From the NCBI GenBank assembly GCA_046596255.1, contig JBKJMZ010000013.1, positions 263-64,262 of the forward strand: 64,000 nucleotides of DNA, given 5' to 3'. Made by a program: the position numbers and the translations under genes. The first letter of the stretch is position 1. Each line of letters begins with the position of its first letter. The notes under the pieces were generated by a model that made no database searches, was not told the DNA's origin, and worked only from the letters and a program-made list of their open reading frames with translations. This DNA is from Ferruginibacter sp. GTDB taxonomy: Bacteria; Bacteroidota; Bacteroidia; Chitinophagales; Chitinophagaceae. Positions 122 through 24,965 of the stretch are shown here, piece after piece.

Positions 122-3100
122 ATGCTAATCCAACTGTGTAAGAAACCGATTTTCTTTATTACCCTGTTATTATGCGGCGTAGATGCCGAAGCCCAGGAGC
201 CAAAACTTATCCTGCCTTTTAGCCCGGGCATTGTTTCTAACATGAAATTTTCTCCTGACGGGAAAAGAATATTAACCCAGGCTGATAATAAAAAAGGCAC
301 ACTTACATCTCCTTTATTATGGAACACCCAAACTGGGAAGCTCTTAGCGGTTTTATCGGGTCATACAGGGGAAGTGCGGGAAGCAATATTTTCTCCCGAC
401 AGCAAAAAAATTATAAGCTATTCTTTTATTGATGACAATCGAGTTAGGTTATGGGATGCCATATCAGGCAGGGTTCTTTATATATTAGGTAAGCATGAAG
501 TTTCCATTGATGCCGCTGCTTTTTCACCCGATTCAAAGAAAGTGGCAATTATCATTTCTGATACCATCCAGGTATGGGATACAGAAACAGGCCAGTTGAT
601 AAATAGCATCGATGAATTCGGCGGACTTCTTTCTACATGCACGATAAGCTTTTCGCCCGATGGAAAAAAATTATTAACCACTACTAAAGACAGTATCGCA
701 CAGGTATGGGATGTAGAAACTGGAAAAGACATAGTTACATTGAGCGGGCAGGGACATGTAATTAGTTCCGCTTCATTTTCTCCTGATGGCCTGCAGGTTT
801 TAACCATATCTGAAGATACGGTAATAAGAGTATTGAATGCACAATCCGGGAAGGTTTTACACAGGCTTGGCGGATACAAGGGAGGCATAAAATTTGCCCG
901 GTTTTCGCCCGATGGAAAAAAAATATACTCGGCAACTATTGTTACACCTTTTATGCCTGTTAAACATATAAAAATTTGGTCCGCAGAAATGGGTATATTG
1001 CTGCTGAATAAAAAAATAGAAAGCTCCACTTCACCTGTATTTGCCATTTCAAACGATGGCACAAAAATCGTTACAGGGTTTACTGACCAGGAAAATAAAA
1101 TCATTTTACAGGATATTGAATCGGAAAAAGTAGTCGGGGAATTTAATAATTCTGCCGAGATATCTTCTGTAACCCTTTCGACAGATAATAAAAAGATAGC
1201 AACAGGATCATGGGATGAGAATGTACATATATGGAACCTTGAGACAGGGTCTCTTATAACAACCCTTAACGGTCATACATTGGAAGCTGGGAGCGCCCTT
1301 CAGTCGGCCGATGGCGAAAGGATCATAAGCCAGCGTGATTGGGAAGCTGTGCAGATATGGAACAGGCGAACAGGGGCTTTATTGAGTACTATTTATGATG
1401 CTAATTTCATTGAAGGTTCAGATGTTTTATCCCCTGATGGAAAAAGATTGATCTTAAAGATCATTGAGAACCCCTCTAAAAAACCCAAACCTTTTACACC
1501 CGGAACAACATCAATTGAAGTTCATTCTCTATTCACAAAATTAATGCGGGGCAACGCTGAACTTTGGGAACCGGATAGTGCAAAGTTCATAGGCTTTTTG
1601 GGCCAGGGTAAGGAAACAGTGAGGGCCCGTTTTTCGGCAGATAGTAAATTATTGTTTACTACAAATGAAGATGGAGTTACAACCATCAGGAATGGGCTAA
1701 CAGGCGATTCCCTTTTTTCAATTAAACAGGATAGAGAAAATGCAGCAGTAAATTTTTCTCCTGACAGCAAAAAGATCGCAGCATCGGTTGATAAGATCAT
1801 AAAGGTTTTTAATTGCACTTCGGGTGCCTTATTATTCACGTTTAAAGACCATAAGGAAGCGGTTCAACAGGTGGTATTTACTCCTGATGGGAAAAAACTG
1901 GTGACATCATCCCGGGATGCAATTAAAATATGGGATGCTGCTTCGGGACTTTTACAAAAATCGCTGATACATGGAGAAGAAGGGAATCCAAAAATTCAGA
2001 TTTCCCCTAACAGTAAACTGATGTCTGTACGAAGTGAGGACAAACTCGATATTTGGGATCTTGATGGAGGCGAACAGATTACCCATATGAAGGATGACTA
2101 TCCCTCCGTTTTGCATGAGGATAATAAAATGCTTGTGTTTAGTCCTGATGAGAAGCTATTCGCTTTTCTTGCTGAGGATAATTCAGTTTTAGTGTTTGAG
2201 ACACATTTCGGACTGGAGAAAGTCAGGCTCCCTGGTCACCCCGAACCTATATCTTCCATAATATTTTCTAAGGATTCCAAAAGCATAGCTGTCGTTTTTC
2301 CGAATTTTATTGAGGTTTGGAATGCTGAAACAGGGGAGCGAATTGATCCGGTGTCACAGCCCGAACCCATTCAATTCTTTGATAATAATTTCTATAACAG
2401 TAAAAGGGTGAGTTTGAATAACGGGCTTGTAGTTGTGTCTGACTTGGAGACCGGGAAACAGATCTATTCTTTTGTGGGAGTTGATAGTACAGAATTTTTT
2501 TACCAACTCCCTTCGGGTTATTATTATATTTCTTCGCCACAGGTTGCAAAGATGTTGCATTATGTTACACCCGACCAGCGCGTGATAGGTTTTGAGCAAT
2601 TGGATGTAAAGTTCAACCGCCCCGACCTTATTCTGCCGGTAATTGGTTCAACTGACACGGCCCTGATCGACTCTTACAGAAAAGCCTATGAAAAAAGGAT
2701 AAAAAAACTCCGTATTGATACAGCTTCATTTAGTGTCGGCTTTGGATTGCCCGAAGCCGATTTTTCGGATAGGGCAAAAATCGTGTTTGAACAAAGGGAA
2801 AATAAATTATCGCTGAATATAAAGGGGAAAGACGCTGTGTATGAACTTGACCGTTTTAACCTTTGGATAAATGAAGTGCCTTTATTTGGCCAGCGGGGCA
2901 TAAGCTTAAAAAATAAAATGAAGAAAGTTTTTGATACGACAATTACAGTGATCTTATCGGGTGGAAATAATCAACTGGAGACCTCCATATCCAATGTGAA
3001 CGGTACAGAAAGTTACCGGGTCCCACTGACTGTAAATTATATACCGGAGGTAAAACCAAAAGAGCAAATATATTTTATCGGAATCGGCATTGACCAGTTT

Positions 3101-3847
3101 GTTCAAAGCAAATACAACCTTAAGTACAGCACAAAGGATATCCGCGACCTTGCAAACAAATTAAAAGAAAAGTATACGGGCATCATCATTGATACTTTGT
3201 TCAATGAAAATGTAACTATTAGCAATGTAAAAGCCTTAAAACAAAAACTGCTACAAACCAATGTCAATGATAAAGTGATCATTTCTTATTCCGGCCATGG
3301 TATGCTGAGTAAGGATTTTGATTACTATCTTTCAACCTATGGGGTGAACTTTGATAAACCCGAAGAAAACGGCCTGCCTTACGATGAACTGGAAAGTTTA
3401 CTGGATAGTATCCCTGCCCGAAAAAAACTAATGCTTATTGATGCTTGTCATAGCGGTGAAGTGGATAAGGACGATTTAGTTGCCCTTAATGCAACAGATA
3501 CAAAATTGATCAAAGGACTTAAACCCGTTGCTTACAAAAAAGAAGGCCAGTTAGGGTTAAAGAACAGCTTTGAACTGATGCAAAGCCTTTTTGTGAATGT
3601 AGGCAAGAGCACCGGGGCAACTATCATCTCAGCAGCTGCAGGTACCCAGTTTGCACTGGAAGGAGTAGACAATCTTCCCAATGGGGTTTTTACCTACAGC
3701 ATTTTGGAAGCCATGAATAAATATCCAACAATGAAGATCAGTGAACTGAAAAAGATCGTGGGGGATCGGGTGGTAGAGATCACCAAGGGTTTACAAAAAC
3801 CTACCAGCAGGAATGAAACCATTGCGGTGGATTGGGAAATATGGTAA
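122..3847 (+). CDS. Exported WD40-repeat / caspase-like (peptidase C14) fusion protein, paralog 1
   Basis: 1241-aa ORF. N-terminal signal peptide (..LLLCGVDAEA|QEP). Repeated WD40-type blades (GH..V...FSPDGK....D.t...WD..tG). Linker shared by all four paralogs (YYY..., FEQLDVKFNRPD, SYRKAYEKRIKKL). The C-terminal caspase fold starts at YFIGIGIDQF (nt 3071), with His in ISYSGHGM (codon 3296-3298) and Cys in LIDACHSGE (codon 3446-3448). Confidence 0.85.
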   Translation: MLIQLCKKPIFFITLLLCGVDAEAQEPKLILPFSPGIVSNMKFSPDGKRILTQADNKKGTLTSPLLWNTQTGKLLAVLSGHTGEVREAIFSPDSKKIISYSFIDDNRVRLWDAISGRVLYILGKHEVSIDAAAFSPDSKKVAIIISDTIQVWDTETGQLINSIDEFGGLLSTCTISFSPDGKKLLTTTKDSIAQVWDVETGKDIVTLSGQGHVISSASFSPDGLQVLTISEDTVIRVLNAQSGKVLHRLGGYKGGIKFARFSPDGKKIYSATIVTPFMPVKHIKIWSAEMGILLLNKKIESSTSPVFAISNDGTKIVTGFTDQENKIILQDIESEKVVGEFNNSAEISSVTLSTDNKKIATGSWDENVHIWNLETGSLITTLNGHTLEAGSALQSADGERIISQRDWEAVQIWNRRTGALLSTIYDANFIEGSDVLSPDGKRLILKIIENPSKKPKPFTPGTTSIEVHSLFTKLMRGNAELWEPDSAKFIGFLGQGKETVRARFSADSKLLFTTNEDGVTTIRNGLTGDSLFSIKQDRENAAVNFSPDSKKIAASVDKIIKVFNCTSGALLFTFKDHKEAVQQVVFTPDGKKLVTSSRDAIKIWDAASGLLQKSLIHGEEGNPKIQISPNSKLMSVRSEDKLDIWDLDGGEQITHMKDDYPSVLHEDNKMLVFSPDEKLFAFLAEDNSVLVFETHFGLEKVRLPGHPEPISSIIFSKDSKSIAVVFPNFIEVWNAETGERIDPVSQPEPIQFFDNNFYNSKRVSLNNGLVVVSDLETGKQIYSFVGVDSTEFFYQLPSGYYYISSPQVAKMLHYVTPDQRVIGFEQLDVKFNRPDLILPVIGSTDTALIDSYRKAYEKRIKKLRIDTASFSVGFGLPEADFSDRAKIVFEQRENKLSLNIKGKDAVYELDRFNLWINEVPLFGQRGISLKNKMKKVFDTTITVILSGGNNQLETSISNVNGTESYRVPLTVNYIPEVKPKEQIYFIGIGIDQFVQSKYNLKYSTKDIRDLANKLKEKYTGIIIDTLFNENVTISNVKALKQKLLQTNVNDKVIISYSGHGMLSKDFDYYLSTYGVNFDKPEENGLPYDELESLLDSIPARKKLMLIDACHSGEVDKDDLVALNATDTKLIKGLKPVAYKKEGQLGLKNSFELMQSLFVNVGKSTGATIISAAAGTQFALEGVDNLPNGVFTYSILEAMNKYPTMKISELKKIVGDRVVEITKGLQKPTSRNETIAVDWEIW

Positions 3848-3962
3848 AGAAAGCAGAAAATCCAAATTCGAATTGAGCGGCACAAAAGATAAGTTGAATG
3901 AACTTGCTGCTGCGGTGGCGGAGAAGTCGGCGGTGATGGTAAAGTAAGTTTTAAAAAACGCT

Positions 3963-6900
3963 ATGAGCAAAATATTACTGGTTATCTTTTGTTTTGCTAC
4001 AACAATGGTTTGGGGGCAACAGGCCAAATTAATGTTGCCCGTTGGGCATACGAAAGCAGTGCTTGCGGTTGACTTCAGTATAGATAGTAAAATGTTGGTT
4101 TCAGGATCGGATGATAATACTGCAAAGCTATGGGATGTTGCCAGCGGTAAAGAATTATTATCTTTTGCAGGGCATACAGATCGGGTGGTCTCAGTAAAAT
4201 TCTTCAACAATGACCTGTATTTAATTTCCGGCTCGGAAGATAATACTGTTAAGATCTGGAATTGCAAAACAGGTAAATTAGTTTTTGATCTGAAAGGACA
4301 TACAGGTAGAATTAATGCAGTTAATTTAAGTCCTGATGAAAAGTTGGTAATAACTGCTTCAGACGACAGAACTGCAAAGATCTGGGACATTGAAACCGGC
4401 ATATTATTACATACTTTAACCAGTCATCAATGGGCTGTTAAGAAGGCAATTTTTGATCTAACTGCAACAAAAGCCATTACAGTTTCTGAAGATAACATGG
4501 CAGTAATTTGGGAAGTAGCTACCGGAAAAATTTTAAAACAACTTACACATCACCGGGGAGCCCTTAGTGATGTTTGCCAAATACCCGGTACTAACCTTAT
4601 CATAACAGCATCCATAGATCACTCGGCTGCTGTTGTGAATATTGAAAGCGGCAAAGTAATTCAAGAATTTACCGGGCATACAAATGATGTTACAAAAGTT
4701 ATTGCCGCCAATAGTGGAAAACTAGCATTCACAACATCAGTGGATAGTACAATAATATGTTGGGATATTAAAACTGGTAAATTAATGTATCGTAGCAGCC
4801 ATAATGCACAGATTTTAGATATAAGCATAAGCCCAGATGATAAATGGATTGCAACAGCTTCATCAGATAATTTAATAAGAATTTGGAATGCGGCATCAGG
4901 CAAAGAGCTTCATAAACTTATTGGCCATGAGGCTGGTGTAAGAGCCGTCTCATTCAATAAAAATTCGGCAATATTAGCTTCGGGCTCAAATGATAATCGC
5001 ATAAAATTATGGAATACAAAGGAGGCGGAACTAATTAGAACTATAAGTACTCATACCGAGACCGTTATATTTATGGCATATTCCGAAGACAGTGTATATT
5101 ATCTTACCACTGCCAATGATGATCAAAAAAATTCTATCTGGAATAAAGCTAAATCAATAATAATAGCTATTGTTGAAACTGCTACAGGTAAAGAAATATC
5201 AAGGAAGATTTTCAGCGTTGATAGTATTTCTAATGAATTTGATGCAATTGTGTATAGCATGGATGGTAAATTTTATATTACAAAGGATACCAAAGGTAAT
5301 TTGAGCATCCATGATGCGTTTTCAACCCAGCATGTTCGAACCATTAAAAATTCCGGTAATACAATTATAGATCCTGCGTTTTTCGAAAGTTCCGGAAAGG
5401 TTATATCGGTCTATGATAAGCATTATATTAAGGTTTGGGATATAAAGGATTCACTTAAAGATGAAGTCTTAATTAAGGAGAAGTTGCAGATTACGCGGTT
5501 CAAATATTTTCATAATGCTCGTGAGTTATACTACTTAACAAAGTTGAATGAGCTTGTAAATTTTAATTGCAGGATAAAAAAAATAAAATCAAGGATAAAG
5601 CTTTTCCCAGCTGGTAAAATTACTTTTTTTGCAAAAGAAGAACAGGTTGCTGTTTACATGGCAGATAAAAAAGCATTATTTATTGAAGGCAATTCGGGAA
5701 CACTACGAAAATATATTCTACAGATCAAGGGAGAGGCGGAAGAGCCAAAGATCGTTGAAAACAGGAAGGCAATAATGTTTTTTGAGAATAAGGAATATGC
5801 CAGGATTTATGATATTAAAACCGGCAGGTTAAAACTGCAGTTTAAAGTTTGGGATCAATTAGGATATATTGGATTTGTAAACAGCAGTGGTGATAAATTT
5901 TATCATTCACAGGAAGATAATTCAATAGCAGAGCGGAATTTAGTAAATGGAAAAGCAGAACGAAAATTTATAAAACATCAAAACTGGCTTACACACATCG
6001 CTCCATACCCGCTTAAAAACATGATGATTTCCTATGGCTGGGATAACCAGTCTGTTATATGGGATAAAGAAAAAGCTTTGCCGGTTTGCTACAGGTTACA
6101 ATTGAAAGATAATAACTGGATAAATTATCTACCAACAGGTTACTATTACGCCACGCCCGACGCATCAAAGCTTCTTTATTATGTAACCAGAGATTTAAAA
6201 ATAATAAGCTTTGATCAATTGGATGTAAAGTATAACCGTCCCGACAAAGTGCTGCAAGCACTTGGCAATACAGACACTTCATTAATAAATTCTTACCGTA
6301 GGGCTTATGAAAAAAGAATTAAGAAACTGGGGATTGATACTACTACATTTATGGATGGTTTCGGTGTTCCGGAAAGCAATCTTGCAAACCGGGAGCAGTT
6401 GGAATTTGAGCTGACAAATGAATTGCTGGATTTACAAATTAAACTTTTTGATAGTACCTACAAACTTGACCGGTTTAATGTTTGGTTAAATGAAGTGCCC
6501 GTTTTTGGACAGCGGGGAGTAAATATCAGAAAGAATAATACACGACAACTGGACACCGCAATCAGGGTACAACTATCGCAGGGATACAACCTTTTAGAAA
6601 CCACCGTATATAATGTGAACGGTACCGAAAGCTACCGCATGCCCTTGCAGGTAAATTATACGCCTGCCAATAAACAGTCAGAAAGAACATATTTCATAGG
6701 TATTGGCATTGATCAGTTCGTTGACAGTAAGTACAATTTAAAGTACAGCACAAAAGATATCCGTGATCTCATCAAAAAACTAAAAGAAAAATATAATGAC
6801 ATTATCATAGATACCTTATTCAATGAAGATGTAACCATCAATAAGGTAAAAGTATTAAAACAAAAACTGCTGCAAACTACAGTAAATGATAAAGTCATTA

Positions 6901-7466
6901 TTTCTTACTCCGGCCACGGCATGTTAAGCAAAGATTTTGATTATTTCCTTTCAACCTATGCAGTAAATTTTGATAAGCCTGAAGAGAATGGCCTGCCTTA
7001 CGATGAGCTGGAAAGTCTGTTAGACAGTATTCCTGCCCGTAAAAAATTAATGCTCATTGATGCCTGCCATAGCGGTGAAGTAGACAAGGATTACCTGGTT
7101 GCCCTAAATGCCACGGATAAAAAATTGATCAAAGGACTTAAACCCGTTGCTTACAAAAAAGAAGGCCAGCTGGGATTAAAAAATAGCTTTGAACTGATGC
7201 AAAGCCTTTTTGTGAATGTAGGCAAAAGCACCGGCGCCACCATCATCTCAGCCGCAGCGGGTACCCAGTTTGCGCTGGAAGGAGTGGATAATCTTCCCAA
7301 TGGTGTATTTACATACTGCATACTTGAGGCAATGAATAAATATCCAACAATGAAGATCAGTGAACTAAAGAAGATCGTTGGAGAGAGAGTGGTAGAGATC
7401 ACAAAAGGATTACAAAGGCCAACCAGCAGGAATGAAACGATAGCGGTGGATTGGGAAGTATGGTAA
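3963..7466 (+). CDS. Exported WD40-repeat / caspase-like (peptidase C14) fusion protein, paralog 2
   Basis: 1167-aa ORF. Signal peptide (..TTMVWG|QQA). Very canonical WD40 blades at the N-terminus (GHTKAVLAVDFS..SGSDDNTAKLWDVASG, GHTDRVVSVKF..SGSEDNTVKIWNCKTG, GHTGRINAVNLSPD..ASDDRTAKIWDIETG). Same linker (FDQLDVKYNRPD, SYRRAYEKRIKKL). Caspase module from nt 6690, with His codon 6915-6917 (SYSGHGM) and Cys codon 7065-7067 (DACHSGE). Confidence 0.9.
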   Translation: MSKILLVIFCFATTMVWGQQAKLMLPVGHTKAVLAVDFSIDSKMLVSGSDDNTAKLWDVASGKELLSFAGHTDRVVSVKFFNNDLYLISGSEDNTVKIWNCKTGKLVFDLKGHTGRINAVNLSPDEKLVITASDDRTAKIWDIETGILLHTLTSHQWAVKKAIFDLTATKAITVSEDNMAVIWEVATGKILKQLTHHRGALSDVCQIPGTNLIITASIDHSAAVVNIESGKVIQEFTGHTNDVTKVIAANSGKLAFTTSVDSTIICWDIKTGKLMYRSSHNAQILDISISPDDKWIATASSDNLIRIWNAASGKELHKLIGHEAGVRAVSFNKNSAILASGSNDNRIKLWNTKEAELIRTISTHTETVIFMAYSEDSVYYLTTANDDQKNSIWNKAKSIIIAIVETATGKEISRKIFSVDSISNEFDAIVYSMDGKFYITKDTKGNLSIHDAFSTQHVRTIKNSGNTIIDPAFFESSGKVISVYDKHYIKVWDIKDSLKDEVLIKEKLQITRFKYFHNARELYYLTKLNELVNFNCRIKKIKSRIKLFPAGKITFFAKEEQVAVYMADKKALFIEGNSGTLRKYILQIKGEAEEPKIVENRKAIMFFENKEYARIYDIKTGRLKLQFKVWDQLGYIGFVNSSGDKFYHSQEDNSIAERNLVNGKAERKFIKHQNWLTHIAPYPLKNMMISYGWDNQSVIWDKEKALPVCYRLQLKDNNWINYLPTGYYYATPDASKLLYYVTRDLKIISFDQLDVKYNRPDKVLQALGNTDTSLINSYRRAYEKRIKKLGIDTTTFMDGFGVPESNLANREQLEFELTNELLDLQIKLFDSTYKLDRFNVWLNEVPVFGQRGVNIRKNNTRQLDTAIRVQLSQGYNLLETTVYNVNGTESYRMPLQVNYTPANKQSERTYFIGIGIDQFVDSKYNLKYSTKDIRDLIKKLKEKYNDIIIDTLFNEDVTINKVKVLKQKLLQTTVNDKVIISYSGHGMLSKDFDYFLSTYAVNFDKPEENGLPYDELESLLDSIPARKKLMLIDACHSGEVDKDYLVALNATDKKLIKGLKPVAYKKEGQLGLKNSFELMQSLFVNVGKSTGATIISAAAGTQFALEGVDNLPNGVFTYCILEAMNKYPTMKISELKKIVGERVVEITKGLQRPTSRNETIAVDWEVW

Positions 7467-7585
7467 CACTAACAAAATTATTTATAGTAGTATTTAAATT
7501 ACAGTTCCCTGGCATCGTTGAAAAATACCATCTTTTGGTATTACAGATCATAACAAAACACAGTACCTTTTACAAAAATTAGGTT

Positions 7586-11230: not shown

Positions 11231-11332
11231 TAGCTTTTCATATAAGCATTCTATACATTGTTTTTTGCGGATAAGAATGAAGGAACTATTTTTAGATACT
11301 AAAATCATTGTTTACCAAAACTTCATCATACT

Positions 11333-12850: not shown

Positions 12851-12921
12851 TCACTATTTATCGTTTAGAACCTAATTTCTCCAAGGGTAAAAACCGGTAA
12901 TGATTAAAAAAATCCCTGGCT

Positions 12922-15900
12922 ATGCATAAAAATACCTTTCGCATTGGAATACTCCTGTTTTGTATATTCCTGGCAGAGATAAGCCCCGCGCAGGATATAA
13001 GGATCGTGCCAAAAGAGAGGTCTTTCCTTTATTTATTAGGAATGAGCGTGAGCCCTTCAGGTTCATACATTGCATCCCGTCTTTTGGAGTCGAAGCAGGT
13101 TTCCATTTTTGAATCGTTTTCGGGAAAAGAAATAAAACGTATAGACCTTGGCACACGGCCCGAGAAGTTTTATTTTTTGAATGATGAATACCTTCTGGTT
13201 ATTTTTAATTTCAATATTGTAATCATTGACACAAGGGATAAGACCACTGTAGCAGAATGGAAATCAGATGACAGGATATTTAACGTTGACTTTAATTTGA
13301 AGAACAAGGTATTGGCAATTTCAACCTTATACAATACTGCTACAATAAGCTGCACAGGCAGCAGGTTCAATATTCTTGCCTCCATCCCTTCAAAAAAGAG
13401 TGACATTTTATCCATTTCTGAGAATGGGCTTGTGCTTGCAGGCCTACAGGAAAATAAGATCGTTTGCTGGAACGTAAATGATCTCCAGGTTAAGGGAAGC
13501 ATAGATACTGCGGGTATCCATTCTTTTGAAGCAGTTTCATCCGGAATCATTGCTATAAAAAAAGACCCATTCAGTTATGCGTATTATAATTTCGACGGAA
13601 CACTGCGATCTGGATCTGGCTATAAAGAAATAAGAAATGTGTCCCCAGCCTATTTCACACACCTGCATTCCACTGAAGGTGGATTTTTTGTGGAGGCATA
13701 CAAAAAGATCGTATTTATTGATAACGAAGGTTACCAAACCATCTTAAAAACGGCTGACCAGTATAAAGAGATGCAGTATAATGAGGCTACAGGTAAATTT
13801 ATAACCTTAGGCTTCGATAATATCACGGTGATGGACATTGAAGGTGCTGTATATGCAAAGACTGCCCTGGATGATGTTTTGCCTGTTGATATGTATTATG
13901 ATACCACGTTAGAAAAAAATATGATCGCACTGGATAGCCAGGTTGTATTTGCCGAAAGCGGGAAAGAGGTGCGGAAATTTATGTTGAAGGGGAATTATGT
14001 AACCAAGGCAATTGAAAAAGATAACTGGCTGATCGTGCCGCTGGCAGATGGACGCATTTCGATCTGGGATATAAAAAAAGAAAAGCTACTGTATGATATT
14101 AAGCATGGCCAGATCCCTTACCTCGTAGTACCGGATCACAAGAATAACTGCCTTTACACCTCGGTATTCCAGGATAGTGCTGTTTACCGGGTAGACCTGG
14201 CAAAGGACACCAAACAATTGATCTATAAAGACAATGCACCCATAACAGCACTTGCCATAAAAAATGACCAGGTATTTATTGGAAATACCAGGGGCGAAGT
14301 AAAAGCCACACTGCTACAGGGAAACAGCCTGCTCGTTAAACACAGGGCCAGCCTGTTTGGTAATGGGATATCTAAAATAACTATTGCCGGCGATAAGTTA
14401 ATGATCGGCTCTTACGGCCGCATGGGGTATATAAAAACTGATCTCAGTGATTCTGTGAACACGCCATTATTTGTCGGGCATAATGGATTGATAAAGGATA
14501 TTGTGATCTCTGCCGACAAGCGTTTCTTTATTTCAAGCGCACAGGATAAGACCATTAAACTGTGGGACCTCGAAAAAAACAGGCTTGTACAGTCCTACGA
14601 TCTTGATTCTGTGGATGCCGATCGATTACAGTTAGTAGGCAACACGGAGTTCTTATTTTATGGCGCTGGATTTTTAATGGGCGCTGTTACAGATAGTGTA
14701 TCAGTAAATGCATTCATGAATCCCGGCAATGAGATCGTGGTGCAATCTCCCAATAATAATTCACCCTTAAAGATGGCCATTAATAAGGAAGGTACCCTGC
14801 TGGCTGCTGTTGATAATAATACGGTAAAAGTACGGGACCTAAAGAGTGGCTTTTTGATCAGTGAATTTTCAACCCAAAATAAAACGGTGAACGGGATAAC
14901 TTTTACAACCGATGGTAAAATGATCGCTGTTGCAGCAGGAGATGCTGTGGAATGTTTTGATCCCTTAACTGGTAAACTCATCCGGCAGATCGTACTGGAT
15001 AAAAGAGGCAGGTCGGTGCATGATGTGGAGGCTTATAATAATGCTATCGTAGCTATAAACAGTCATGGATGGCACAACCCGTTGATATTTCATAAGAATT
15101 CGGGGCTTAAGCTGGGAGAGATATGGTATAATGCAGGTGAACAAATGGACAAGCGAATTATGGATTTTAAATGTACGTCCAATGGGTCACTGCTTATTAC
15201 TTATGGTACCGACTTTATAAAAGTTTTTGAGAATCCACAAAAACCAAAGCTCATTTTAACCATTCCCCTCGCAGCACAGGGTAAAACCAATGAAAATTAT
15301 ATTGATTTCATGAACATCAGCCCCGATGAAAAATATTTACTGTATGATGATTTCACTGATGTTTCCACTTTGAAGATTGTGGAGATAGCAGGTGGTAAGT
15401 TATTAAAGCAACACAATGGTGGCATCGGGGCTTTTGGTAAAGATGGTAGATACATTTATGTGGCGGGCAGAAACCGGGTAGGATTCAGAAATATTCTTAC
15501 TGATTCTGTGCGTATCCTGGATTTTACCTGCGATGGCGATATCAATAATATTGTATACAACGATAAAGCCGACATTTTTGCTGTGAGTGATACCTGGGGT
15601 AATATAAAAATACTCGAAGGCCGATCGGGCAGTATCATTTCAGAGAACAGCCGCTGGGATCAGTACACTTATAATTCAATACTCTCTCCCGATGGCTGGT
15701 ATATGGTCTTCAATAACCGCTCTGGTTTATATACAATCGATCTTAATACGCTTAAGAGAGAAAAGATACCGGCAGAAAATTTTCCTTTATCAGGTGTGTT
15801 TTCTCCAGCATCCGACAAATTATACTTTAGAAATAAAAATACCTTTTATGCAAAGGAACTTGCCACCGGGAATATAGATACCATCTTTACAACATCCGTA

Positions 15901-18012
15901 AAAGAAAAAAATATCCAGTATATGGATATTTCTGCGGACGGAAAGATACTCTGGTTCGGCACTGCCAATGATGATATTATTTTTATTGATATTGAAACCC
16001 GCAGACAATTCTGGAGTATGAATAAATTCCGGGTGAAAGATTGGGACGGCTTTGTATTAAGAGATATGGTTTACAGGGATGGCAAATACCAATTACTGGG
16101 TGTGGGCATTAAAACCTATGGTAAAGAAAGTGGTTTCACATACATAACAGTCGAAGCAAATGATAATATGATCTCTATAAAAAGATCACCCGAGAAAAAA
16201 TTATTAAGAGAGGGAAAAGGCTTTGAACGTAAAGTGTTTGAAAGGGATGGGAAAATATTTGATATATCGCCCGATGGAAAATATTTCTGTTTTATGAAAG
16301 AACTGGAGCTGTATATCGTTGATCTCAAGTCAGGCGATACTGTTTTTAATCGTGATAACCCGATATCAGGAAGTATACAATCAGGTTTTTTTACAGCAGA
16401 TCAAAAGTTTTTCATAGTAGGGCTGGATGATGGCTATACGGAGATCTATGACTTGGGCAGGAAGGGTAAAAGTTACAAATATGGTAACGAGGCCAAAGGC
16501 TTATTGAGGCTGAAACGCTTCAGGGCCAATGAAAGTGGAGTTTCATATATGCAGGTAGCAGGCAACAGGTTACTGGTTAAAGGCAATAACGCTTTTATTT
16601 CATTGTTTGATATGAATAGTGAATTCAATAAGGAGCTGGATATGGATTTTATTAAAGATGCCGACCAGGTATTCATCAATCCGGAGGGATATTATTATTC
16701 AACCAAGAACGCACTTAATTATATAGCTTTTAAAAGAGACGTTTCCATTTATCCATTTGAGCAGCTGGATATAAAATATAATCGCCCGGATAAAGTGCTT
16801 GAATCTGTTCACAGTAAAGATGCCTCCCTGATCGGCTCTTACAAAATGGCTTATTTAAAAAGGATCAAAAGAATGAATATTCACGAAGCCAGTAACCTTG
16901 ATGTAAGCAATATTCCCCAGGCTGATTTTGCAAACAGGCTCAGCATCCCTTTTGACCAGACTACAGGACAGTTAAAGCTGAACGTAAAGGGAGGAGATAA
17001 TAAGTATGCTTTGGACCGGGTGAATATCTGGATTAATGATGTTCCCTTATGGGGAATGAAAGGGCTAAGCCTTCAAAACCGCAAGAGGAGCTTATATGAT
17101 ACAACCATCATGATTAATTTAACAAAAGGAAGGAACAAGATCGAGGTAGCGCTGACCAACAGCAACGGTGCAGAAAGTTTCAAAACACCATTAATGGTAA
17201 ATTATTCGCCGGTCAATACTATAAATGAAAAGGTCTATTTCATTGGTATAGGTATTGATGAGTTCGCAGACAATAAATACAATCTTAAATACAGCGCCAA
17301 GGATATCAGGGACCTTGCTGAAAAGTTCAGTGAGCAATATGGCAATTTAGTGATCATCGATACGCTTATAAATGAAAATGTAACTGTCAGCAATATAAAA
17401 GCATTAAAGAAAAAGCTGCTGCAAACAACAGTAAATGATAAGGTAATAATTTCATACTCGGGTCATGGCATGCTGAGCACCGACTTTGATTATTATCTTT
17501 CTACCTATGCTGTAAATTTTGACAAACCCGAAGAGAATGGCTTGTCGTATGATGCACTGGAAGACCTTGTTGATAATATTCCAGCCCGTAAGAAACTCCT
17601 GTTGATAGATGCCTGTCACAGTGGTGAGGTAGATAAGGATGACCTGGAGAGGCTTAATGCTACCCCCGACAGTTTAATAAAAGGGCTTAAGCCCGTGGGT
17701 TTTAAAAAGAACGGGCAGTTGGGTTTGAAGAACAGTTTTGAATTGATGCAGACCCTGTTTGTAAATGTGGGCAAGAGTACTGGTGCTACGATCATTTCAG
17801 CAGCAGCGGGTACCCAGTTTGCGCTGGAGAGTAATAATTTAAAAAACGGCATTTTTACTTACAGCATACTGGAAGCGATGAATGCCAATAGCTCGATGAA
17901 AATCAGCGAACTTAAAAAAATTGTAGGTGAGCGGGTGGAACAATTGACGAAAGGATTACAGAAACCTACCTCAAGAAGCGAATCGATTGTTGTGGATTGG
18001 GAAGTTTGGTGA
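12922..18012 (+). CDS. Exported giant beta-propeller-repeat / caspase-like (peptidase C14) fusion protein, paralog 4
   Basis: 1696-aa ORF. Signal peptide (..LAEISPA|QDI). About 1250 aa of degenerate propeller-type repeats with a few recognisable WD40 blades (GHNGLIKDIVISADKRFFISSAQDKTIKLWDLEKN). Shared linker (FEQLDIKYNRPD, SYKMAYLKRIKRM). Caspase module from nt 17236 (YFIGIGIDEF ... SYSGHGM ... DACHSGE ... VDWEVW). Confidence 0.85.
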   Translation: MHKNTFRIGILLFCIFLAEISPAQDIRIVPKERSFLYLLGMSVSPSGSYIASRLLESKQVSIFESFSGKEIKRIDLGTRPEKFYFLNDEYLLVIFNFNIVIIDTRDKTTVAEWKSDDRIFNVDFNLKNKVLAISTLYNTATISCTGSRFNILASIPSKKSDILSISENGLVLAGLQENKIVCWNVNDLQVKGSIDTAGIHSFEAVSSGIIAIKKDPFSYAYYNFDGTLRSGSGYKEIRNVSPAYFTHLHSTEGGFFVEAYKKIVFIDNEGYQTILKTADQYKEMQYNEATGKFITLGFDNITVMDIEGAVYAKTALDDVLPVDMYYDTTLEKNMIALDSQVVFAESGKEVRKFMLKGNYVTKAIEKDNWLIVPLADGRISIWDIKKEKLLYDIKHGQIPYLVVPDHKNNCLYTSVFQDSAVYRVDLAKDTKQLIYKDNAPITALAIKNDQVFIGNTRGEVKATLLQGNSLLVKHRASLFGNGISKITIAGDKLMIGSYGRMGYIKTDLSDSVNTPLFVGHNGLIKDIVISADKRFFISSAQDKTIKLWDLEKNRLVQSYDLDSVDADRLQLVGNTEFLFYGAGFLMGAVTDSVSVNAFMNPGNEIVVQSPNNNSPLKMAINKEGTLLAAVDNNTVKVRDLKSGFLISEFSTQNKTVNGITFTTDGKMIAVAAGDAVECFDPLTGKLIRQIVLDKRGRSVHDVEAYNNAIVAINSHGWHNPLIFHKNSGLKLGEIWYNAGEQMDKRIMDFKCTSNGSLLITYGTDFIKVFENPQKPKLILTIPLAAQGKTNENYIDFMNISPDEKYLLYDDFTDVSTLKIVEIAGGKLLKQHNGGIGAFGKDGRYIYVAGRNRVGFRNILTDSVRILDFTCDGDINNIVYNDKADIFAVSDTWGNIKILEGRSGSIISENSRWDQYTYNSILSPDGWYMVFNNRSGLYTIDLNTLKREKIPAENFPLSGVFSPASDKLYFRNKNTFYAKELATGNIDTIFTTSVKEKNIQYMDISADGKILWFGTANDDIIFIDIETRRQFWSMNKFRVKDWDGFVLRDMVYRDGKYQLLGVGIKTYGKESGFTYITVEANDNMISIKRSPEKKLLREGKGFERKVFERDGKIFDISPDGKYFCFMKELELYIVDLKSGDTVFNRDNPISGSIQSGFFTADQKFFIVGLDDGYTEIYDLGRKGKSYKYGNEAKGLLRLKRFRANESGVSYMQVAGNRLLVKGNNAFISLFDMNSEFNKELDMDFIKDADQVFINPEGYYYSTKNALNYIAFKRDVSIYPFEQLDIKYNRPDKVLESVHSKDASLIGSYKMAYLKRIKRMNIHEASNLDVSNIPQADFANRLSIPFDQTTGQLKLNVKGGDNKYALDRVNIWINDVPLWGMKGLSLQNRKRSLYDTTIMINLTKGRNKIEVALTNSNGAESFKTPLMVNYSPVNTINEKVYFIGIGIDEFADNKYNLKYSAKDIRDLAEKFSEQYGNLVIIDTLINENVTVSNIKALKKKLLQTTVNDKVIISYSGHGMLSTDFDYYLSTYAVNFDKPEENGLSYDALEDLVDNIPARKKLLLIDACHSGEVDKDDLERLNATPDSLIKGLKPVGFKKNGQLGLKNSFELMQTLFVNVGKSTGATIISAAAGTQFALESNNLKNGIFTYSILEAMNANSSMKISELKKIVGERVEQLTKGLQKPTSRSESIVVDWEVW

Positions 18013-19395
18013 TCAGTAATCAATTCCGAATAAAGAAAAACTTGCCCATTGTGAAGGCTTGGAAAATTTTTCCCTGGTGTCAAGCATGGCTAATCTTAAT
18101 GGTTCTGAAGGCATGAAGTAATGAGGGTCCTTAAGATGATGTACAAAACGGTTCATTAAATAAGCCGTGGCATTATCGTCAACGTTCCAAAGACTCATGA
18201 TCACATGGTCACTACCGCCCAACAGGAAACTACGTGCAAGGCCTGCTACACCAGCTTCCATTGATTTTCCCAGCCCGGTCTGACAGGCAGACAGGATCAC
18301 CATGGCCGGGAAATTATTTTTCAGGTAATTGCTGTCAGTTCGCAAAGCCATGATATTTTGGGCAGTTAAAAATGGATCTTTACCGCTCAATACCAGGAAA
18401 CTTTTTTCCATCGGCTTATCCTCATCCGCTATACCATGGGTTGCAAAATAAACTACATCTGCAGTTTTCATATACCTGATCACGCTGTCTTTAACAGCTT
18501 TGTTGCCTTCAAGTAATTTATAGGTTCCCGCGTATTTTATTGCAGTGTCAATTTCTTTTTTTGCCCCGGGCAGATCTGGGTAAACGAATTCCGTGCCTAC
18601 AGGATAAACCGGGTTGCTTATAAAAAGCGGGTTATTGAAAATAAAAGGACGTTTCACCAGTTCCCTGCCATCAAAGCCATATTCCGTAGCAGCTGTTTTC
18701 CTGATCACTTTTACTCTTAAACCAAGCAGGTCAAAAATACCGGGTACAACAGTTACACTGCAAAGATCAAGGAGCTGCAGTTCTTTTTGCCCAGGTTTGA
18801 GCAGGTAAAATGGAAAAGTGCCAATGTTCAGTGCAGGTATTATAAGTAGGTGCCTGTATTTTGCATTAAAGTTATCGGGTAATAATAATGAGGTGGCTCT
18901 TTTTATTACGTCATTATAAGTTATTCCTTTTGTTGCAGCCGCCCGGTTGATTTTAACTCCTCTTTTTACCGGCATCCTGTCTACTGATCCTGCATAGAGT
19001 TCCAGTACATGATTCATATCAATACTTAGCTGCAATAGTTCAGCCTTGCTGATCGTAAAAATTTTCTTCTCTATTACTTTACCCGGTTCAAAGAATACCC
19101 GCTGGAGGCGGCCCTGGTCAAAGAAGTAAAATAGAATACCAATGCCTTTATTTCTTGGGTAGATATTTCCCAGCATTTCAGCAAAACTTTCATCCGATGC
19201 AATATTCTGCGTATTGAATATTCTTGTCATTTCCTTTATCTCATCAGCAGGCATACCCCTTGTTGCCAGCAGGGATTCAACCTGTTTGCTATATATCCTG
19301 TATACATTTCCGGTATCACTCTTATTCAGTGTTACCTGAGCGAAACATAAAGACGGCAGTAAAAGAATAAGCAGGAATATTTTTTTATAAAACAT
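18013..19395 (-). CDS. Exported CHAT-domain (caspase-fold) protein
   Basis: The ORF runs to 19482, but the likely start is the ATG at 19395, which gives MFYKKIFLLILLLPSLCFA|QVT as a signal peptide. The C-terminal half has a CHAT-type His/Cys dyad context (VVYFATHGIAD ... MVILSACQTGLGK). It lies 91 bp downstream of the caspase gene on the same strand. Confidence 0.78.
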   Translation of the reverse strand: MFYKKIFLLILLLPSLCFAQVTLNKSDTGNVYRIYSKQVESLLATRGMPADEIKEMTRIFNTQNIASDESFAEMLGNIYPRNKGIGILFYFFDQGRLQRVFFEPGKVIEKKIFTISKAELLQLSIDMNHVLELYAGSVDRMPVKRGVKINRAAATKGITYNDVIKRATSLLLPDNFNAKYRHLLIIPALNIGTFPFYLLKPGQKELQLLDLCSVTVVPGIFDLLGLRVKVIRKTAATEYGFDGRELVKRPFIFNNPLFISNPVYPVGTEFVYPDLPGAKKEIDTAIKYAGTYKLLEGNKAVKDSVIRYMKTADVVYFATHGIADEDKPMEKSFLVLSGKDPFLTAQNIMALRTDSNYLKNNFPAMVILSACQTGLGKSMEAGVAGLARSFLLGGSDHVIMSLWNVDDNATAYLMNRFVHHLKDPHYFMPSEPLRLAMLDTREKFSKPSQWASFSLFGIDY

Positions 19396-19486
19396 AGATT
19401 GGGTTGAGGTAAGCGTTGTAATGTAAAAGCACTTTATTAAAAATAGCTTTAATAAAGGGCCTTCGGTATTTATTATTTCCAATAAT

Positions 19487-21724
19487 CTATTTTCTTGCCT
19501 TAACCGACAACCTGATCAGGCTCCAGTTTGAAACAGATTTGCCAAATCCCCGGGTACCTTCTTCATTACCCATATTCAACAGGTTTCCCAAAGGATTATT
19601 ACTTCCCCGGGCACCCGCCCTAACACCTTCCTGGTTAAATAGCATGGCATAATTTGAGATGGGTTCATCTGATGCAAGTATATAATAGTTATCCGTGCCT
19701 ATTGGTTCCTGTACATCACCGTCGAATAAGGTAACTCTTTTCACCAAACCCCCTGCCTCATACTTTGGAAATTGGTTTGTTTGATTACCATCCTCTGCTT
19801 CAGGAAAGCCTAATACCATATTACCATCCTTATCAATTACAAAAACATAGATATAGCGCTTTACCCTTACCGGGCCGGCACCTTCCTGGGCAACCAGGTT
19901 AAAAGATATTTTATCACCAAGCCTGTATCCTTCAGCGCCGATCGGTTGTTTGGTTGCTTTATTAACGATCTCCAGGTAAAAAGGAAACTGTTCATCTCCT
20001 TCCTTGGGTCCCGCTAATTGCTGCCAGCCACGGATCTTTGAAAGCCGCATCGTTAGCTCATATAGATCGTTTGCAATTGCTGTTGCGGATTGGGCACCAT
20101 CTTCCAGTAATATATTTTTTGTTTGCACAGGCATAGATTCCAGGCTGTCACGTGAAGCTGTTTGCGCCCTTCTTAAACCAAATGCCGGTTTGTTGTTATC
20201 ATTAATGGTTCCATATAAAACATAATGGGCATCGGCAGCAGACTTTGTTAAAACAATGCTGGGATTGGTCATTATCTTTTGTTTGATAGCTGCTACCAAT
20301 TCTTTTGATGGGGGCATCTCAAAATAAAAAGTAGAATCCTTTTTGCCTAAAGGCAAAAGGGATTCGGCAGTCAGTTTACCGGGTGCAGGCGCTTCTTTGC
20401 CATCTATATTCAGCCTGTAAGTATTACCATCATAATACAGGGTTGTATAGGGGTCATATTTTTCGAGGTTATTTACCCATTTTATTTTTGAGGATTGTTT
20501 AAGATCCTTATTGACCGCGGCGAGCCGTGCAATTTCTAAATAGGAAAAATTCCCTTCAGGAATAAACAACTTGATTAATGGCGCAGCGGAAGAGACCCAG
20601 TTGGTCACTTCCAGAAAATCTCCTGCCCTAAGATCTTTTATAGAACCTTTAATAATCCTGGCCATCGACCTGTTAACACTAAACACCGTATCAATACGCA
20701 GTTTAACAAGCGTGTCCTTATCATTAAATTTTACAAGTTCATTTTCCTGGTATAAGCCCAGTGCAAATCCACCCTGAAGCATTACCCGGTCACCCTTAAT
20801 GCCGGAAACGGCGATCTGGGCTTTATCAGAAATACTTCCTTTTTCCAGTCCGAACAATGTCTGCATTTGTCTTTCTGTGCTGCCTCCCAATACAGGCTCC
20901 TGTTTTTTGCCATTACTTTTTAAAATAGCCCGAAGACCTGTGAACAAATTAAATGCAGATGCATTCACCGACTGTTGTTCCAAAGCCTGTAATAAAGCAA
21001 TGGTGAAAGCTCCATGAGGTATTTGGTTTTCATCCAGCTGTTCCTGAGCAAATTCATTGTCCTGTGCTGCAGACATGATCAGGAAATCTGCATTCTTCCT
21101 TAATTCAGGTACAGGAGGTTGTGCTGCATCTTTAGCATCAAAATTACTTTCGGGGATAAAACGGAATTTAGCAGGGGTATTTGGCCCCCTGGATAATGAC
21201 CCACTATGACAGCAATCCATGATCACCGTTAGTTTTACGCCTTTGTCAATAAATTTGTTGTAGATAGCAGCAAGCTCCTTATCCCGGATATCTTCAACGC
21301 CTTCTTTATAGGTGTCACTCGGAACCATGGATTCGTCTTTTTTATCGGCTTCAACAGTTAAGCTGTTGCGTACCTGGCTTCCATGACCTGCATAGTACAT
21401 AAATGCAATATCATTCCGCTTGCTTTTATCAAGCAGCGCATTCATCTTTTTCAGGATGGCTTCCCGGCTTGCAGCCTTGTTATATAAGGTATCAACCCAT
21501 TCATTTTTAAACCTGAATTTAGATACGATCACAGAATGCATTGACATGGCATCATTCACGCAGCCATCAAGACTGTTAAAAGAAGCACGCTTACCGCTTG
21601 GCGGAACATAGCTTGCCGGTATGCTGTAATCATCTATACCAATAAGCAATGCTCTTTTTTCCTGGGCTGAAATGCTGTAAGCTGATAAGACAGTGATACA
21701 GAGAAAGATTATACTCTTTTTCAT
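19487..21724 (-). CDS. Exported caspase-family (peptidase C14) protein with large C-terminal extension (DUF4384-like end)
   Basis: 745-aa ORF. Signal peptide (..LSAYSISA|QEK). The caspase domain begins right after the cleavage site (RALLIGIDDY ... MYYAGHGSQ ... VIMDCCHSGS). The C-terminus has a segment resembling the DUF4384 module often fused to bacterial C14 peptidases (YRLGDKISFNL...YIYVFVIDKDGNMVLGFP...YYILASDEPI). Confidence 0.82.
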   Translation of the reverse strand: MKKSIIFLCITVLSAYSISAQEKRALLIGIDDYSIPASYVPPSGKRASFNSLDGCVNDAMSMHSVIVSKFRFKNEWVDTLYNKAASREAILKKMNALLDKSKRNDIAFMYYAGHGSQVRNSLTVEADKKDESMVPSDTYKEGVEDIRDKELAAIYNKFIDKGVKLTVIMDCCHSGSLSRGPNTPAKFRFIPESNFDAKDAAQPPVPELRKNADFLIMSAAQDNEFAQEQLDENQIPHGAFTIALLQALEQQSVNASAFNLFTGLRAILKSNGKKQEPVLGGSTERQMQTLFGLEKGSISDKAQIAVSGIKGDRVMLQGGFALGLYQENELVKFNDKDTLVKLRIDTVFSVNRSMARIIKGSIKDLRAGDFLEVTNWVSSAAPLIKLFIPEGNFSYLEIARLAAVNKDLKQSSKIKWVNNLEKYDPYTTLYYDGNTYRLNIDGKEAPAPGKLTAESLLPLGKKDSTFYFEMPPSKELVAAIKQKIMTNPSIVLTKSAADAHYVLYGTINDNNKPAFGLRRAQTASRDSLESMPVQTKNILLEDGAQSATAIANDLYELTMRLSKIRGWQQLAGPKEGDEQFPFYLEIVNKATKQPIGAEGYRLGDKISFNLVAQEGAGPVRVKRYIYVFVIDKDGNMVLGFPEAEDGNQTNQFPKYEAGGLVKRVTLFDGDVQEPIGTDNYYILASDEPISNYAMLFNQEGVRAGARGSNNPLGNLLNMGNEEGTRGFGKSVSNWSLIRLSVKARK

Positions 21725-21774: not shown

Positions 21775-21839
21775 AACTCAGTGATAACACGTATTTATTT
21801 TCTGTCTAATTCAAAAGAACTCAGTGGTAACACGTATTT
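21775..21839. promoter_or_regulatory. Pair of 22-bp direct repeats in the divergent promoter region (candidate operator sites)
   Basis: AACTCAGTGATAACACGTATTT (21775-21796) and AACTCAGTGGTAACACGTATTT (21818-21839) match at 21 of 22 positions, with starts 43 bp apart. They lie between the caspase-CHAT operon (minus strand) and the small secreted protein gene (plus strand). Confidence 0.45.
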
Positions 21840-24865: not shown

Positions 24866-24965
24866 ACGTATTAATTTTTTATTAACTGACAAGATAACTT
24901 TTTTAGGAAGAAGATAGACCAGTAAATGATGGGTGGGGTAGGGTTAAAAATAAAGCACAGAAAAC

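Follow-up and report, generated by a model that had tools for sequence, protein, structure and literature searches.

At present, most of what is understood about caspase homologues, CHAT proteases and trypsin-like proteases in bacteria concerns cytoplasmic roles, as executioners or activators in cell-death and anti-phage systems. In gasdermin operons, and in type III-E CRISPR systems with the TPR-CHAT protein Csx29, caspase-like, CHAT or trypsin-like proteases, often fused to repeats, cleave the product of a neighbouring gene. Gingipains, PorU (family C25) and PmC11 (family C11) are exported clan-CD proteases of Bacteroidota, and gingipains use a C-terminal domain of the type IX secretion system (T9SS). 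Here we describe an island of protease genes in a 64,000-nucleotide stretch of DNA from the soil or freshwater bacteroidote Ferruginibacter sp. (contig JBKJMZ010000013.1, positions 263 to 64,262; this whole stretch is called the window below), in which the whole conserved neighbourhood is predicted to be exported, lacks a nucleoside triphosphatase (NTPase), gasdermin or Cas partner, and has a small conserved partner protein of its own with Arg-Gly motifs. Comparison of related loci indicates a composite island, built from modules around exported C14 proteases, and not an obligate unit.

The closest described proteins come from general surveys. In a survey of bacterial metacaspases (Asplund-Samuelsson et al. 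2012, PMC3501461), WD40 was the commonest fused domain, present in 10.9% of the sequences; the authors also noted N-termini that may be signal peptides, operons with several metacaspases in Bacteroidetes, and 23 operons that contain other proteolysis domains. The surveyed proteins, among them fusions to WD40 or TPR repeats, share with those of the island the C14 p20-type domain with its His/Cys dyad, but the survey does not contain the set formed by an exported S1C protease, a C14-DUF4384 protein and a small protein, the module of propeller, linker and caspase with its conserved DW.[IV]W end, or tandem arrays of up to seven paralogues. A study of conflict systems deals with cytoplasmic caspase, trypsin and CHAT effectors accompanied by NTPases or adaptor domains (Kaur et al., PMC8195603). 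The literature found consisted of general surveys only, none of which describes this exported three-gene set or the propeller-linker-caspase arrays, although the search was incomplete and a prior description is possible.

Seven consecutive large open reading frames (ORFs) occupy positions 122-21724 and encode, according to the ORF list and Pfam, four WD40/C14 fusions, an S1C protease with Trypsin_2 and PDZ domains, a CHAT protein and a C14 protein with a DUF4384-like domain. Together with a small eighth gene they are numbered as follows.

g1, 122..3847, plus strand: 1241 amino acids (aa); predicted signal peptide, WD40 beta-propellers (about two, by length), helical and Ig-like linker, C-terminal C14 domain.
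g2, 3963..7466, plus strand: 1167 aa; architecture as g1, WD40 matched by Pfam at 7e-68, dyad His985/Cys1035.
g3, 7586..11230, plus strand: 1214 aa; architecture as g1, Peptidase_C14 at 3.9e-15 in the full-length Pfam scan, dyad His1032/Cys1082.
g4, 11333..12850, plus strand: 505 aa; putatively exported S1C (HtrA-like) protease with Trypsin_2, one PDZ domain and a family-specific C-terminal domain of about 150 aa.
g5, 12922..18012, plus strand: 1696 aa; about three to four propellers by length, linker module, C14 domain (His1515, Cys1565).
g6, 18013..19395 (ORF to 19482), minus strand: 460 aa from Met30; predicted signal peptide, N-terminal region of about 170 aa, CHAT domain.
g7, 19487..21724, minus strand: 745 aa; predicted signal peptide, metacaspase-like C14 domain, beta-rich C-terminal region of about 450 aa that includes a DUF4384-like domain.
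g8, 21938..22330 (ORF callable from 21878), plus strand: 130 aa; predicted signal peptide, disordered stretch, disulfide-bracketed beta-sandwich of about 70 aa.

The initial annotation of this DNA had singled out the seven protease-motif ORFs, five of them co-directional with spacers of 70-120 bp and two converging on these, and the ORF list, Pfam and the motif positions agree with it: the spacers within g1-g5 measure 115, 119, 102 and 71 bp, the two genes converging on g5 are g6 and g7, and g4 is embedded by short spacers in the propeller-caspase array, between g3 and g5. All the catalytic motifs that it quoted are intact (SYSGHGM/DACHSGE four times, YYAGHGS/DCCHSGS, FATHG/SACQTG, and a trypsin triad with a PDZ domain). 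Of the domains that it had proposed, C14, WD40, CHAT, Trypsin_2 and PDZ are matched by Pfam, whereas the DUF4384 match of g7 stays at 24.8-26.2 bits against a cut-off of 27, although the precomputed Pfam annotation of an identical protein (P0135) and of some g7 orthologues lists PF14326. To this seven-gene account are now added g8, which is divergent from g7, the predicted export signals on all seven proteins and the probable start of g6 at Met30.

The conservation of the neighbourhood was analysed from the S1C gene outwards. Among 185,579 species genomes a pattern scan identified 153 relatives of the S1C protease, and the best 80 of the 153 loci were analysed with our own ORF calling and iterated hidden Markov models. 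In 49 of these 80 loci the gene directly next to S1C was a C14 gene, and 61 had a C14 gene anywhere in the locus; of the 51 loci flanked by 5 kb or more on each side, 31 had it adjacent and 39 had it present. With this direct adjacency in 49 of 80 independent S1C loci, the clustering is not due to chance. Six separate neighbourhood look-ups, namely in a close relative, Terrimonas, Mucilaginibacter, Flaviaesturariibacter, and one metagenome-assembled genome (MAG) each of Flavobacteriales and Bacteroidales, all placed S1C beside C14. Homologues of g8 were found in 37 of the 80 loci, within two genes of a C14 gene in 31 of the 37, and all 21 g8-bearing loci of the well-flanked set also hold a C14 gene. 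Typically the genes run g8 > S1C > C14, with a C14 protein of about 670 aa, or g8 > C14 > S1C, with one of about 750 aa, and the loci come from Chitinophagales, Sphingobacteriales, Cytophagales, Flavobacteriales, Bacteroidales, Ignavibacteria and Balneolaceae. With five C14 genes the window has the most per locus in the sample, and its gene order is common to its closest relatives (loci L008, L009 and L168), one difference being the subtype of the gene at the g7 position.

Other genes recur less often. A 390-aa CHASE2 membrane protein, followed by a protein of about 270 aa with no assigned family, is found in 20 of the 80 loci, where the CHASE2 gene follows the S1C or the C14 gene; CHAT genes of many sizes occur in 14 loci and linker-caspases in 13, the latter in both Ferruginibacter-like and Terrimonas-like lineages and in differing gene orders. 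Proteins of 294-324 aa, a thioredoxin-like protein of about 395 aa and WD40-, TPR- and ankyrin-C14 fusions are further recurrent partners, and the accessory proteins of related loci gave no PADLOC match. A HisKA_3 kinase and a GerE/LuxR-type regulator lie within caspase clusters, or next to them, in a Flavobacterium MAG (L165, 5730-8372) and in Flaviaesturariibacter (L007, 2851-5401), which hints at dedicated regulation.

The reverse test, in which the C-terminal module of the propeller-caspases was searched in metagenome contigs, gave 75 loci, of which 5 hold CHASE2 and the 270-aa protein, 2 a g7-type gene and 1 a g8 gene. Many of them consist of a tandem array that stands alone, with two to seven paralogues. 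The largest array seen (L093, Ga0163149_10000094) has seven tandem propeller-caspases over 21 kb and no S1C, g7 or g8 gene. The recA, uvrB and YceI genes found beside arrays were considered as parts of the system and set aside, as this arrangement is the synteny of one lineage. Loci anchored on g7 (L163-L165) contain TPR-, WD40- and Ank-C14 proteins, thioredoxin, small proteins, CHASE2 and the kinase/regulator pair, and no S1C gene. In loci anchored on g8 a C14-DUF4384 gene is always adjacent, and the pair also lies outside Bacteroidota, on the 1-Mb megaplasmid (plasmid 2) of the cultured gemmatimonadote Gemmatirosa kalamazoonensis KBS708 (L216, NZ_CP007130.1, 289065-314519). There the g8 homologue (10460-10999) directly precedes a g7-type C14 gene (10966-13482), two large CHAT genes lie at 1417-7298, and no S1C protease was found near the g8/g7 pair.

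By these counts the pairing of g8 with C14-DUF4384 is the tightest association, reaching Gemmatimonadota, and g8 is assigned by its neighbourhoods to the protease set, with S1C as a frequent third member and the propeller-caspase arrays and CHAT as recurrent, separable additions. The co-occurrence in other genomes that had been proposed therefore stands for S1C, C14-DUF4384 and g8, and not for the WD40-caspases (2 of 75 loci with S1C) or CHAT (14 of 80). A zymogen-type cascade, which the initial annotation had raised, or cross-cleavage among the proteins would be conjecture. The picture of a self-contained single system is not supported, as the modules are separable and relatives hold CHASE2, about 270-aa, about 300-aa, thioredoxin-like and kinase/regulator partners; no CHASE2, about 270-aa, about 300-aa or thioredoxin-like gene is found in the window.

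All of g1 to g8 have an N-terminal hydrophobic segment that is followed by A/G-Q (in g6 when read from Met30), and g1 to g7 begin with a basic residue ahead of it. Substrates of signal peptidase I in Bacteroidota are expected to show such an A/G-Q junction (the "Q-rule"). Signal-like N-termini were found in 96% of S1C, 97% of g8, 90% of C14, 78% of linker-C14 and 79% of CHAT proteins, against 39% of other ORFs, and in 78-100% of the members of every neighbourhood family. All eight proteins are thus predicted to be exported and to act outside the cytoplasm, in line with the extracytoplasmic action that the initial annotation had suggested. In Pfam scans none of the proteins showed a T9SS C-terminal secretion domain. 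In this respect the cluster proteins differ from gingipains, and although they have in common with gingipains, PorU and PmC11 the caspase-like fold, the phylum and a predicted extracytoplasmic action, those enzymes belong to C25 or C11 and not to C14.

The four propeller-caspases (g1, g2, g3 and g5) each contain SYSGHGM and DACHSGE and match Peptidase_C14 (PF00656) with 58.7, 55.1, 56.6 and 63.3 bits, respectively (cut-off 21.4), at E-values of 1e-15 to 4e-17 (9e-16 for g1, whose dyad is His1059/Cys1109 and whose C-terminus reads ...VDWEIW). The C14 His and Cys are invariant in the family alignments (A3 and A4). The caspase domain is part of a conserved C-terminal module of about 470 aa (alignment A4) that combines a ..GYY.. 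/ F.Q.D..YNRPD motif with helices, an Ig-like segment and the caspase domain, and ends in DW.[IV]W-COOH with an invariant Trp. The nearest solved relatives of the module are metacaspases (A4 profile against AtMC4, 3e-7). In Metacaspase-NACHT-WD40 proteins the caspase is N-terminal and accompanied by an NTPase, whereas the propeller-caspases have a C-terminal caspase, no NTPase and a predicted export signal. The hybrid two-component sensors of Bacteroidota with Reg_prop and Y_Y_Y domains are resembled only in general layout, and the idea that the GYYY motif marks such a sensor was rejected, as the GYYY and Ig-like segments gave no Reg_prop or Y_Y_Y match in Pfam at E <= 0.1.

The caspase domains of g1, g2 and g3 share 90-96% protein identity and 83-84% DNA identity, whereas their propeller regions are only 20-28% identical. 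Synonymous sites of these heads are saturated, with a synonymous divergence (dS) of 1.2-1.5 and a ratio of nonsynonymous to synonymous divergence (dN/dS) of 0.03-0.04; for the pair g1/g2, 93-96% identical, the values are 1.34 and 0.029. The orthologous caspase domain in a related genome is 92% identical, and g5 has a full-length orthologue in L008 at 82% identity. As the heads are conserved at saturated synonymous sites while the propellers have diverged, and an orthologue is 92% identical, the sequences indicate that the propeller-caspases duplicated long ago and have a common head under extreme constraint, joined to divergent binding domains. Recent gene conversion, which could also produce near-identical heads, was ruled out by the DNA identity of 0.83-0.84, the dS of 1.2-1.5 and the equally similar orthologue elsewhere; DNA repeats among the caspase coding regions are only 77-90% identical.

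The C14 domain of g7 is matched with 102.5 bits (4e-29; cut-off 21.4), with YYAGHGS at 110-116 and DCCHSGS at 170-176, placing the dyad at His114 and Cys172. In an AlphaFold 2 (AF2) model built from 39 homologues, with a predicted local distance difference test score (pLDDT) of 80, a metacaspase domain (23-290) precedes a beta-rich C-terminal region. Foldseek and a profile search placed the domain with the Arabidopsis metacaspases AtMC9 and AtMC4, Geobacter GSU0716, yeast Yca1 and TbMCA2; AtMC9 was matched by Foldseek at 1.7e-14, with a template modelling (TM) score of 0.67 on the target, and by the profile against the PDB at 1e-25. The alignment to metacaspases spans GC.ND, Y.GHG, DE.IVP.D and DCCHSG as well as a p10-like part, and model and alignment together indicate that g7 has a genuine metacaspase-like fold. 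Acidic residues in the S1 pocket give metacaspases their Arg/Lys specificity. The pocket motif of g7, DESMVPSD, suggests the same specificity. With the solved metacaspases (AtMC9, AtMC4, Yca1, TbMCA2 and GSU0716) g7 shares sequence motifs, predicted fold and p10-like part; unlike them, it has a predicted signal peptide, a beta-rich extension of about 450 aa with a DUF4384-like domain, and the pairing with g8. In other orders, full-length orthologues of g7 adjoin the S1C gene.

Where the window has g7, its closest relatives hold another C14-DUF4384 subtype (656-666 aa, about 27% identical) in the opposite orientation (L008, 14230-16230), and the g6 and g8 genes around it in L008 are 83% and 91% identical to those of the window. 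This looks like the displacement of one C14-DUF4384 subtype by another. The g7 profile also matched the metacaspase domains of giant-virus bins in IMG/VR (L169-L215, GVMAG contigs) at 25-32% identity; these viral contigs were discarded as relatives, since the matches cover the catalytic domain only and are unrelated to the cluster.

The small partner g8 has no Pfam, NCBIfam or PADLOC family match and belongs to a small, discrete family, for which 1.84 billion representatives yielded 259 clusters at 50% identity. In its AF2 model (pLDDT 77) the N-terminal part is disordered, and two conserved cysteines bracket a beta-sandwich of seven strands. The disordered part carries two K-[ST]-[RK]-G motifs, of which about 80% of 135 family representatives keep the basic residue and 69-77% the Gly, and the second motif directly precedes the first conserved Cys. 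Among the recurrent partners, the 294-324-aa proteins of L014 (8858-9832, minus strand) and L004 (13631-14515, plus strand) carry ATRGLGNRG and ASRGRDGRG near the N-terminus, resembling the K[ST]RG motif of g8. They have no Pfam or PADLOC match, and their length is gasdermin-like.

In g4, Trypsin_2 scores 98.7 bits (6e-28) and PDZ 24.8 bits against a cut-off of 23.2. The triad of H93, D127 and S204 (in TNAHV, YDIAVL and GNSGGP) is invariant across 18 orthologues (alignment A1), the protease core is unusually conserved, and the C-terminal domain ends in a conserved ...TLWY. Full-length orthologues at 42-90% identity are found throughout Bacteroidota. With DegP, DegQ and DegS the protein shares the chymotrypsin-fold triad, the PDZ domain and a predicted signal peptide; it is set apart from them by its sub-cut-off NCBIfam scores (Do-family 187 against 416, DegQ 127 against 756, DegS 122 against 408 bits), its unique C-terminal domain ending in TLWY and its linkage to C14 genes. 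Because of these scores, g4 is not regarded as a DegP, DegQ or DegS orthologue. S1C relatives that are 42-53% identical to g4 and have no C14 neighbour form a sub-clade (L015, L029, L032, L034-L036, L044, L065, L073, L075, L086 and L087), and L032, L034-L036, L044, L065, L073 and L075 share an upstream block of about five genes (about 336, 446, 306, 357 and 314 aa).

The CHAT domain of g6 (PF12770) is matched with 144.3 bits against a cut-off of 24 (7e-42, profile positions 21-288 of 289), and the motifs FATHG (346-350) and SACQTG (398-403) are present. The start most likely is Met30 (MFYKKIFLLILLLPSLCFAQ), at position 19395, which would give the protein its signal peptide. Orthologues of 460 aa are encoded in L008, L009 and L168, and no sequence relatives of g6 were found in the PDB.

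Searches for known defence systems and curated families returned sub-threshold, domain-level matches only. PADLOC-DB 2.0 gave weak generic matches (the caspase model at 1e-6 to 8e-22, the RT-Protease and LmuA models in the trypsin domain, BovA at 4e-5) and no system partners, and the NCBIfam model caspase_w_EACC1 (NF047832), whose cut-off is 140 bits, reached 57.7 and 45.5. Gasdermin had no Pfam or PADLOC match in the island genes, g8 or the flanks, Pfam detected no P-loop NTPase or toxin family in the island or flanks, and no cas family was found among the genes scanned from 122 to 45437. The earlier report that gasdermin, NACHT/NB-ARC/AAA, cas and TIR genes are missing thus agrees with Pfam and PADLOC for island and flanks. 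Gasdermin operons and type III-E systems are cytoplasmic and include a gasdermin, an NTPase or Cas7-11; the present cluster has none of these and its proteins are all predicted to be exported. By sequence, the proteins belong to C14, CHAT and S1C at the superfamily level, and not to DegP/DegQ/DegS, gasdermin, type III-E, STAND, EACC1 or PADLOC systems.

We consider it an even call that the island comprises three exported protease modules, near each other in Chitinophagaceae yet separable, that act as an envelope network. Module A, the conserved part, would be formed by g7, its small partner g8 and the S1C/PDZ protease g4; Module B by the tandem propeller-caspases g1, g2, g3 and g5, with divergent propellers, a conserved linker and a nearly invariant orthocaspase head; and Module C by the exported CHAT protein g6, in the position held by CHASE2 and the 270-aa protein in many relatives. 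Sec export would deliver all the proteins to the periplasm or the cell surface, where the propellers, as exchangeable binding modules, would direct a single shared caspase activity, probably with Arg/Lys specificity, to different targets. There g7 would cleave g8 at its K-[ST]-R-G sites, between Arg and Gly, in which case g8 would be a pro-protein or a substrate-mimic regulator. The PDZ protease g4 would process, activate or clear other components and may recognise their conserved aromatic C-termini, and the CHAT or CHASE2 modules would supply alternative additional functions. We infer every proteolytic relationship and the biological role from domains, motifs, export signals, neighbourhoods and the selection pattern. 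If the proteins act together, they would constitute an envelope-level proteolytic network of the type "one protease head, many propellers" and would widen the scope of bacterial caspase-family biology. These ideas are testable in the cultured Terrimonas ferruginea DSM 30193, Mucilaginibacter limnophilus, Spirosoma spp. and Gemmatirosa kalamazoonensis KBS708.

Several observations weigh against such a network. A g4-type S1C gene accompanies only 2 of the 75 linker-caspase loci, g7-type genes occur without S1C (in the g7-anchored loci and on the Gemmatirosa plasmid), and about a dozen S1C relatives form the clade that lacks a C14 neighbour. The signal-peptide call is a crude heuristic, with the 39% background given above, combined with inspection. 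The DE.IVP.D motif is absent from g1, g2, g3 and g5, so that their S1 specificity is not established. The modelled fold of g8 matches generic Ig-like sandwiches only (the PepT1 extracellular domain, E 7e-4, TM 0.42), and therefore no function can be derived from it, while its RG motifs could be binding or structural elements and not cleavage sites. Finally, promoter and terminator scans gave no evidence of an operon above chance or shuffled sequences, and the Bacteroidota motif TAnnTTTG was not found in any spacer.

Within an accessory envelope role, which could lie in surveillance, in defence from incoming proteins or in attacking other cells, and which we favour over housekeeping because of the rarity and patchy spread, the paralogue expansion and the pattern of constant head and variable binder, a more specific version would be a receptor-protease network. 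The propeller-caspases would sense foreign or damaged envelope proteins (competitor toxins, phage or predator proteins) and the metacaspase/HtrA/CHAT module would process g8 as its output. We regard this version as possible, though unlikely; if true, it would be an extracytoplasmic, NTPase-independent counterpart of cytoplasmic caspase immune and death systems, extending from Bacteroidota to Gemmatimonadota. It is likewise unlikely, in our judgement, that the island is a degradative arsenal of independent secreted proteases that feed on proteins or on prey or algal cells and cluster through shared regulation or local duplication, in which case it would be an ordinary paralogue expansion. Such an arsenal would fit the predicted export of all proteins, the propeller-caspase arrays that stand alone in most loci, the exported DPP-IV gene that adjoins the island and is syntenic in a relative, the M28 and S9/S33-type hydrolases further along, and the suggestion, made in a survey, that Bacteroidetes metacaspases might take part in polymer degradation (PMC4933709). 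Against it speaks the conserved association of S1C, C14-DUF4384 and g8, including a non-enzymatic partner, across several orders and two further phyla, and the extreme constraint on the caspase heads, the CHASE2 membrane protein and kinase/regulator pair added in relatives, the lack of a detected T9SS C-terminal domain, and the rare and patchy occurrence (only 153 pattern-matched relatives in 185,579 species genomes) argue in the same direction.

The DegS/DegP-type arrangement of protease and PDZ domain in g4 would also suit envelope signalling, in which S1C/PDZ and metacaspase form a DegS-like sensor that, on a periplasmic cue, cleaves a membrane or secreted regulator (the CHASE2 protein or g8) and signals to a two-component system. 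The CHASE2 gene that follows S1C or C14 in 20 of 80 loci, the HisKA_3 kinase and GerE-type regulator adjacent in L165 and L007, and the conserved aromatic C-termini (DWE[IV]W of the caspases, TLWY of S1C), which are candidate PDZ ligands, point to it. As no CHASE2, kinase, sigma or anti-sigma gene lies near the island in the window, and five caspases with divergent propellers would be atypical of a single pathway, we hold this to be distinctly unlikely. A partly fortuitous assembly, with a real g4-g7-g8 module and a WD40-caspase array and CHAT gene that are merely its neighbours in this lineage, appears improbable: 73 of the 75 linker-caspase loci lack S1C, arrays lie beside recA/uvrB in one lineage and CHAT is present in only 14 of 80 S1C loci, but linker-caspases are found in 13 of the 80 in two lineages with differing gene orders, g4 sits inside the array, CHAT accompanies g8 and g7 on the Gemmatirosa plasmid, and TPR-, Ank- and WD40-C14 proteins accompany g7 in L163-L165. 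A cytoplasmic programmed-death or abortive-infection system, comparable to a protease with gasdermin, STAND NTPase or type III-E CRISPR, is very improbable. It would draw on the same protease superfamilies, and the sub-threshold PADLOC "caspase" and NCBIfam caspase_w_EACC1 matches are in its favour; against it stand the predicted signal peptide on every protein, the lack of gasdermin, NTPase, cas and TIR genes in island and flanks, the 58 bits against 140 for caspase_w_EACC1, and the accessory proteins of relatives, which have no PADLOC match.

The spacer between the divergent g7 and g8 genes and the right flank contain the following features.

Direct repeat AACTCAGTGRTAACACGTATTT, 21775-21796 and 21818-21839, plus strand: two copies of 22 bp, 43 bp apart.
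DPP-IV/S9 peptidase gene, 22697-24892, minus strand: product predicted to be exported.
NYN-domain gene, 24966-25580, minus strand.

The repeat has two exact copies where none is expected, is found nowhere else in the window, and its core is absent from all 162 other loci compared; it may be a candidate regulator-binding site. Besides the paralogous caspase coding repeats, no direct-repeat family was found in positions 1-22000. The initial annotation had supposed that the locus may continue to the left, which does not apply to this assembly: the window covers 64,000 of the 64,318 nucleotides of the contig, with no further leftward sequence, and the closest relative, L008, likewise begins at a contig end, inside a caspase paralogue. 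To the right, the DPP-IV/S9 and NYN-domain genes are followed by a class II aminoacyl-tRNA synthetase gene and then by ordinary metabolic genes. Both the DPP-IV/S9 and the NYN-domain genes also flank the cluster in L168, which looks like lineage synteny and not membership. Further along the window two tandem DUF2911 genes, unrelated to the cluster, occupy 38228-38881 and 38894-39454 on the minus strand.

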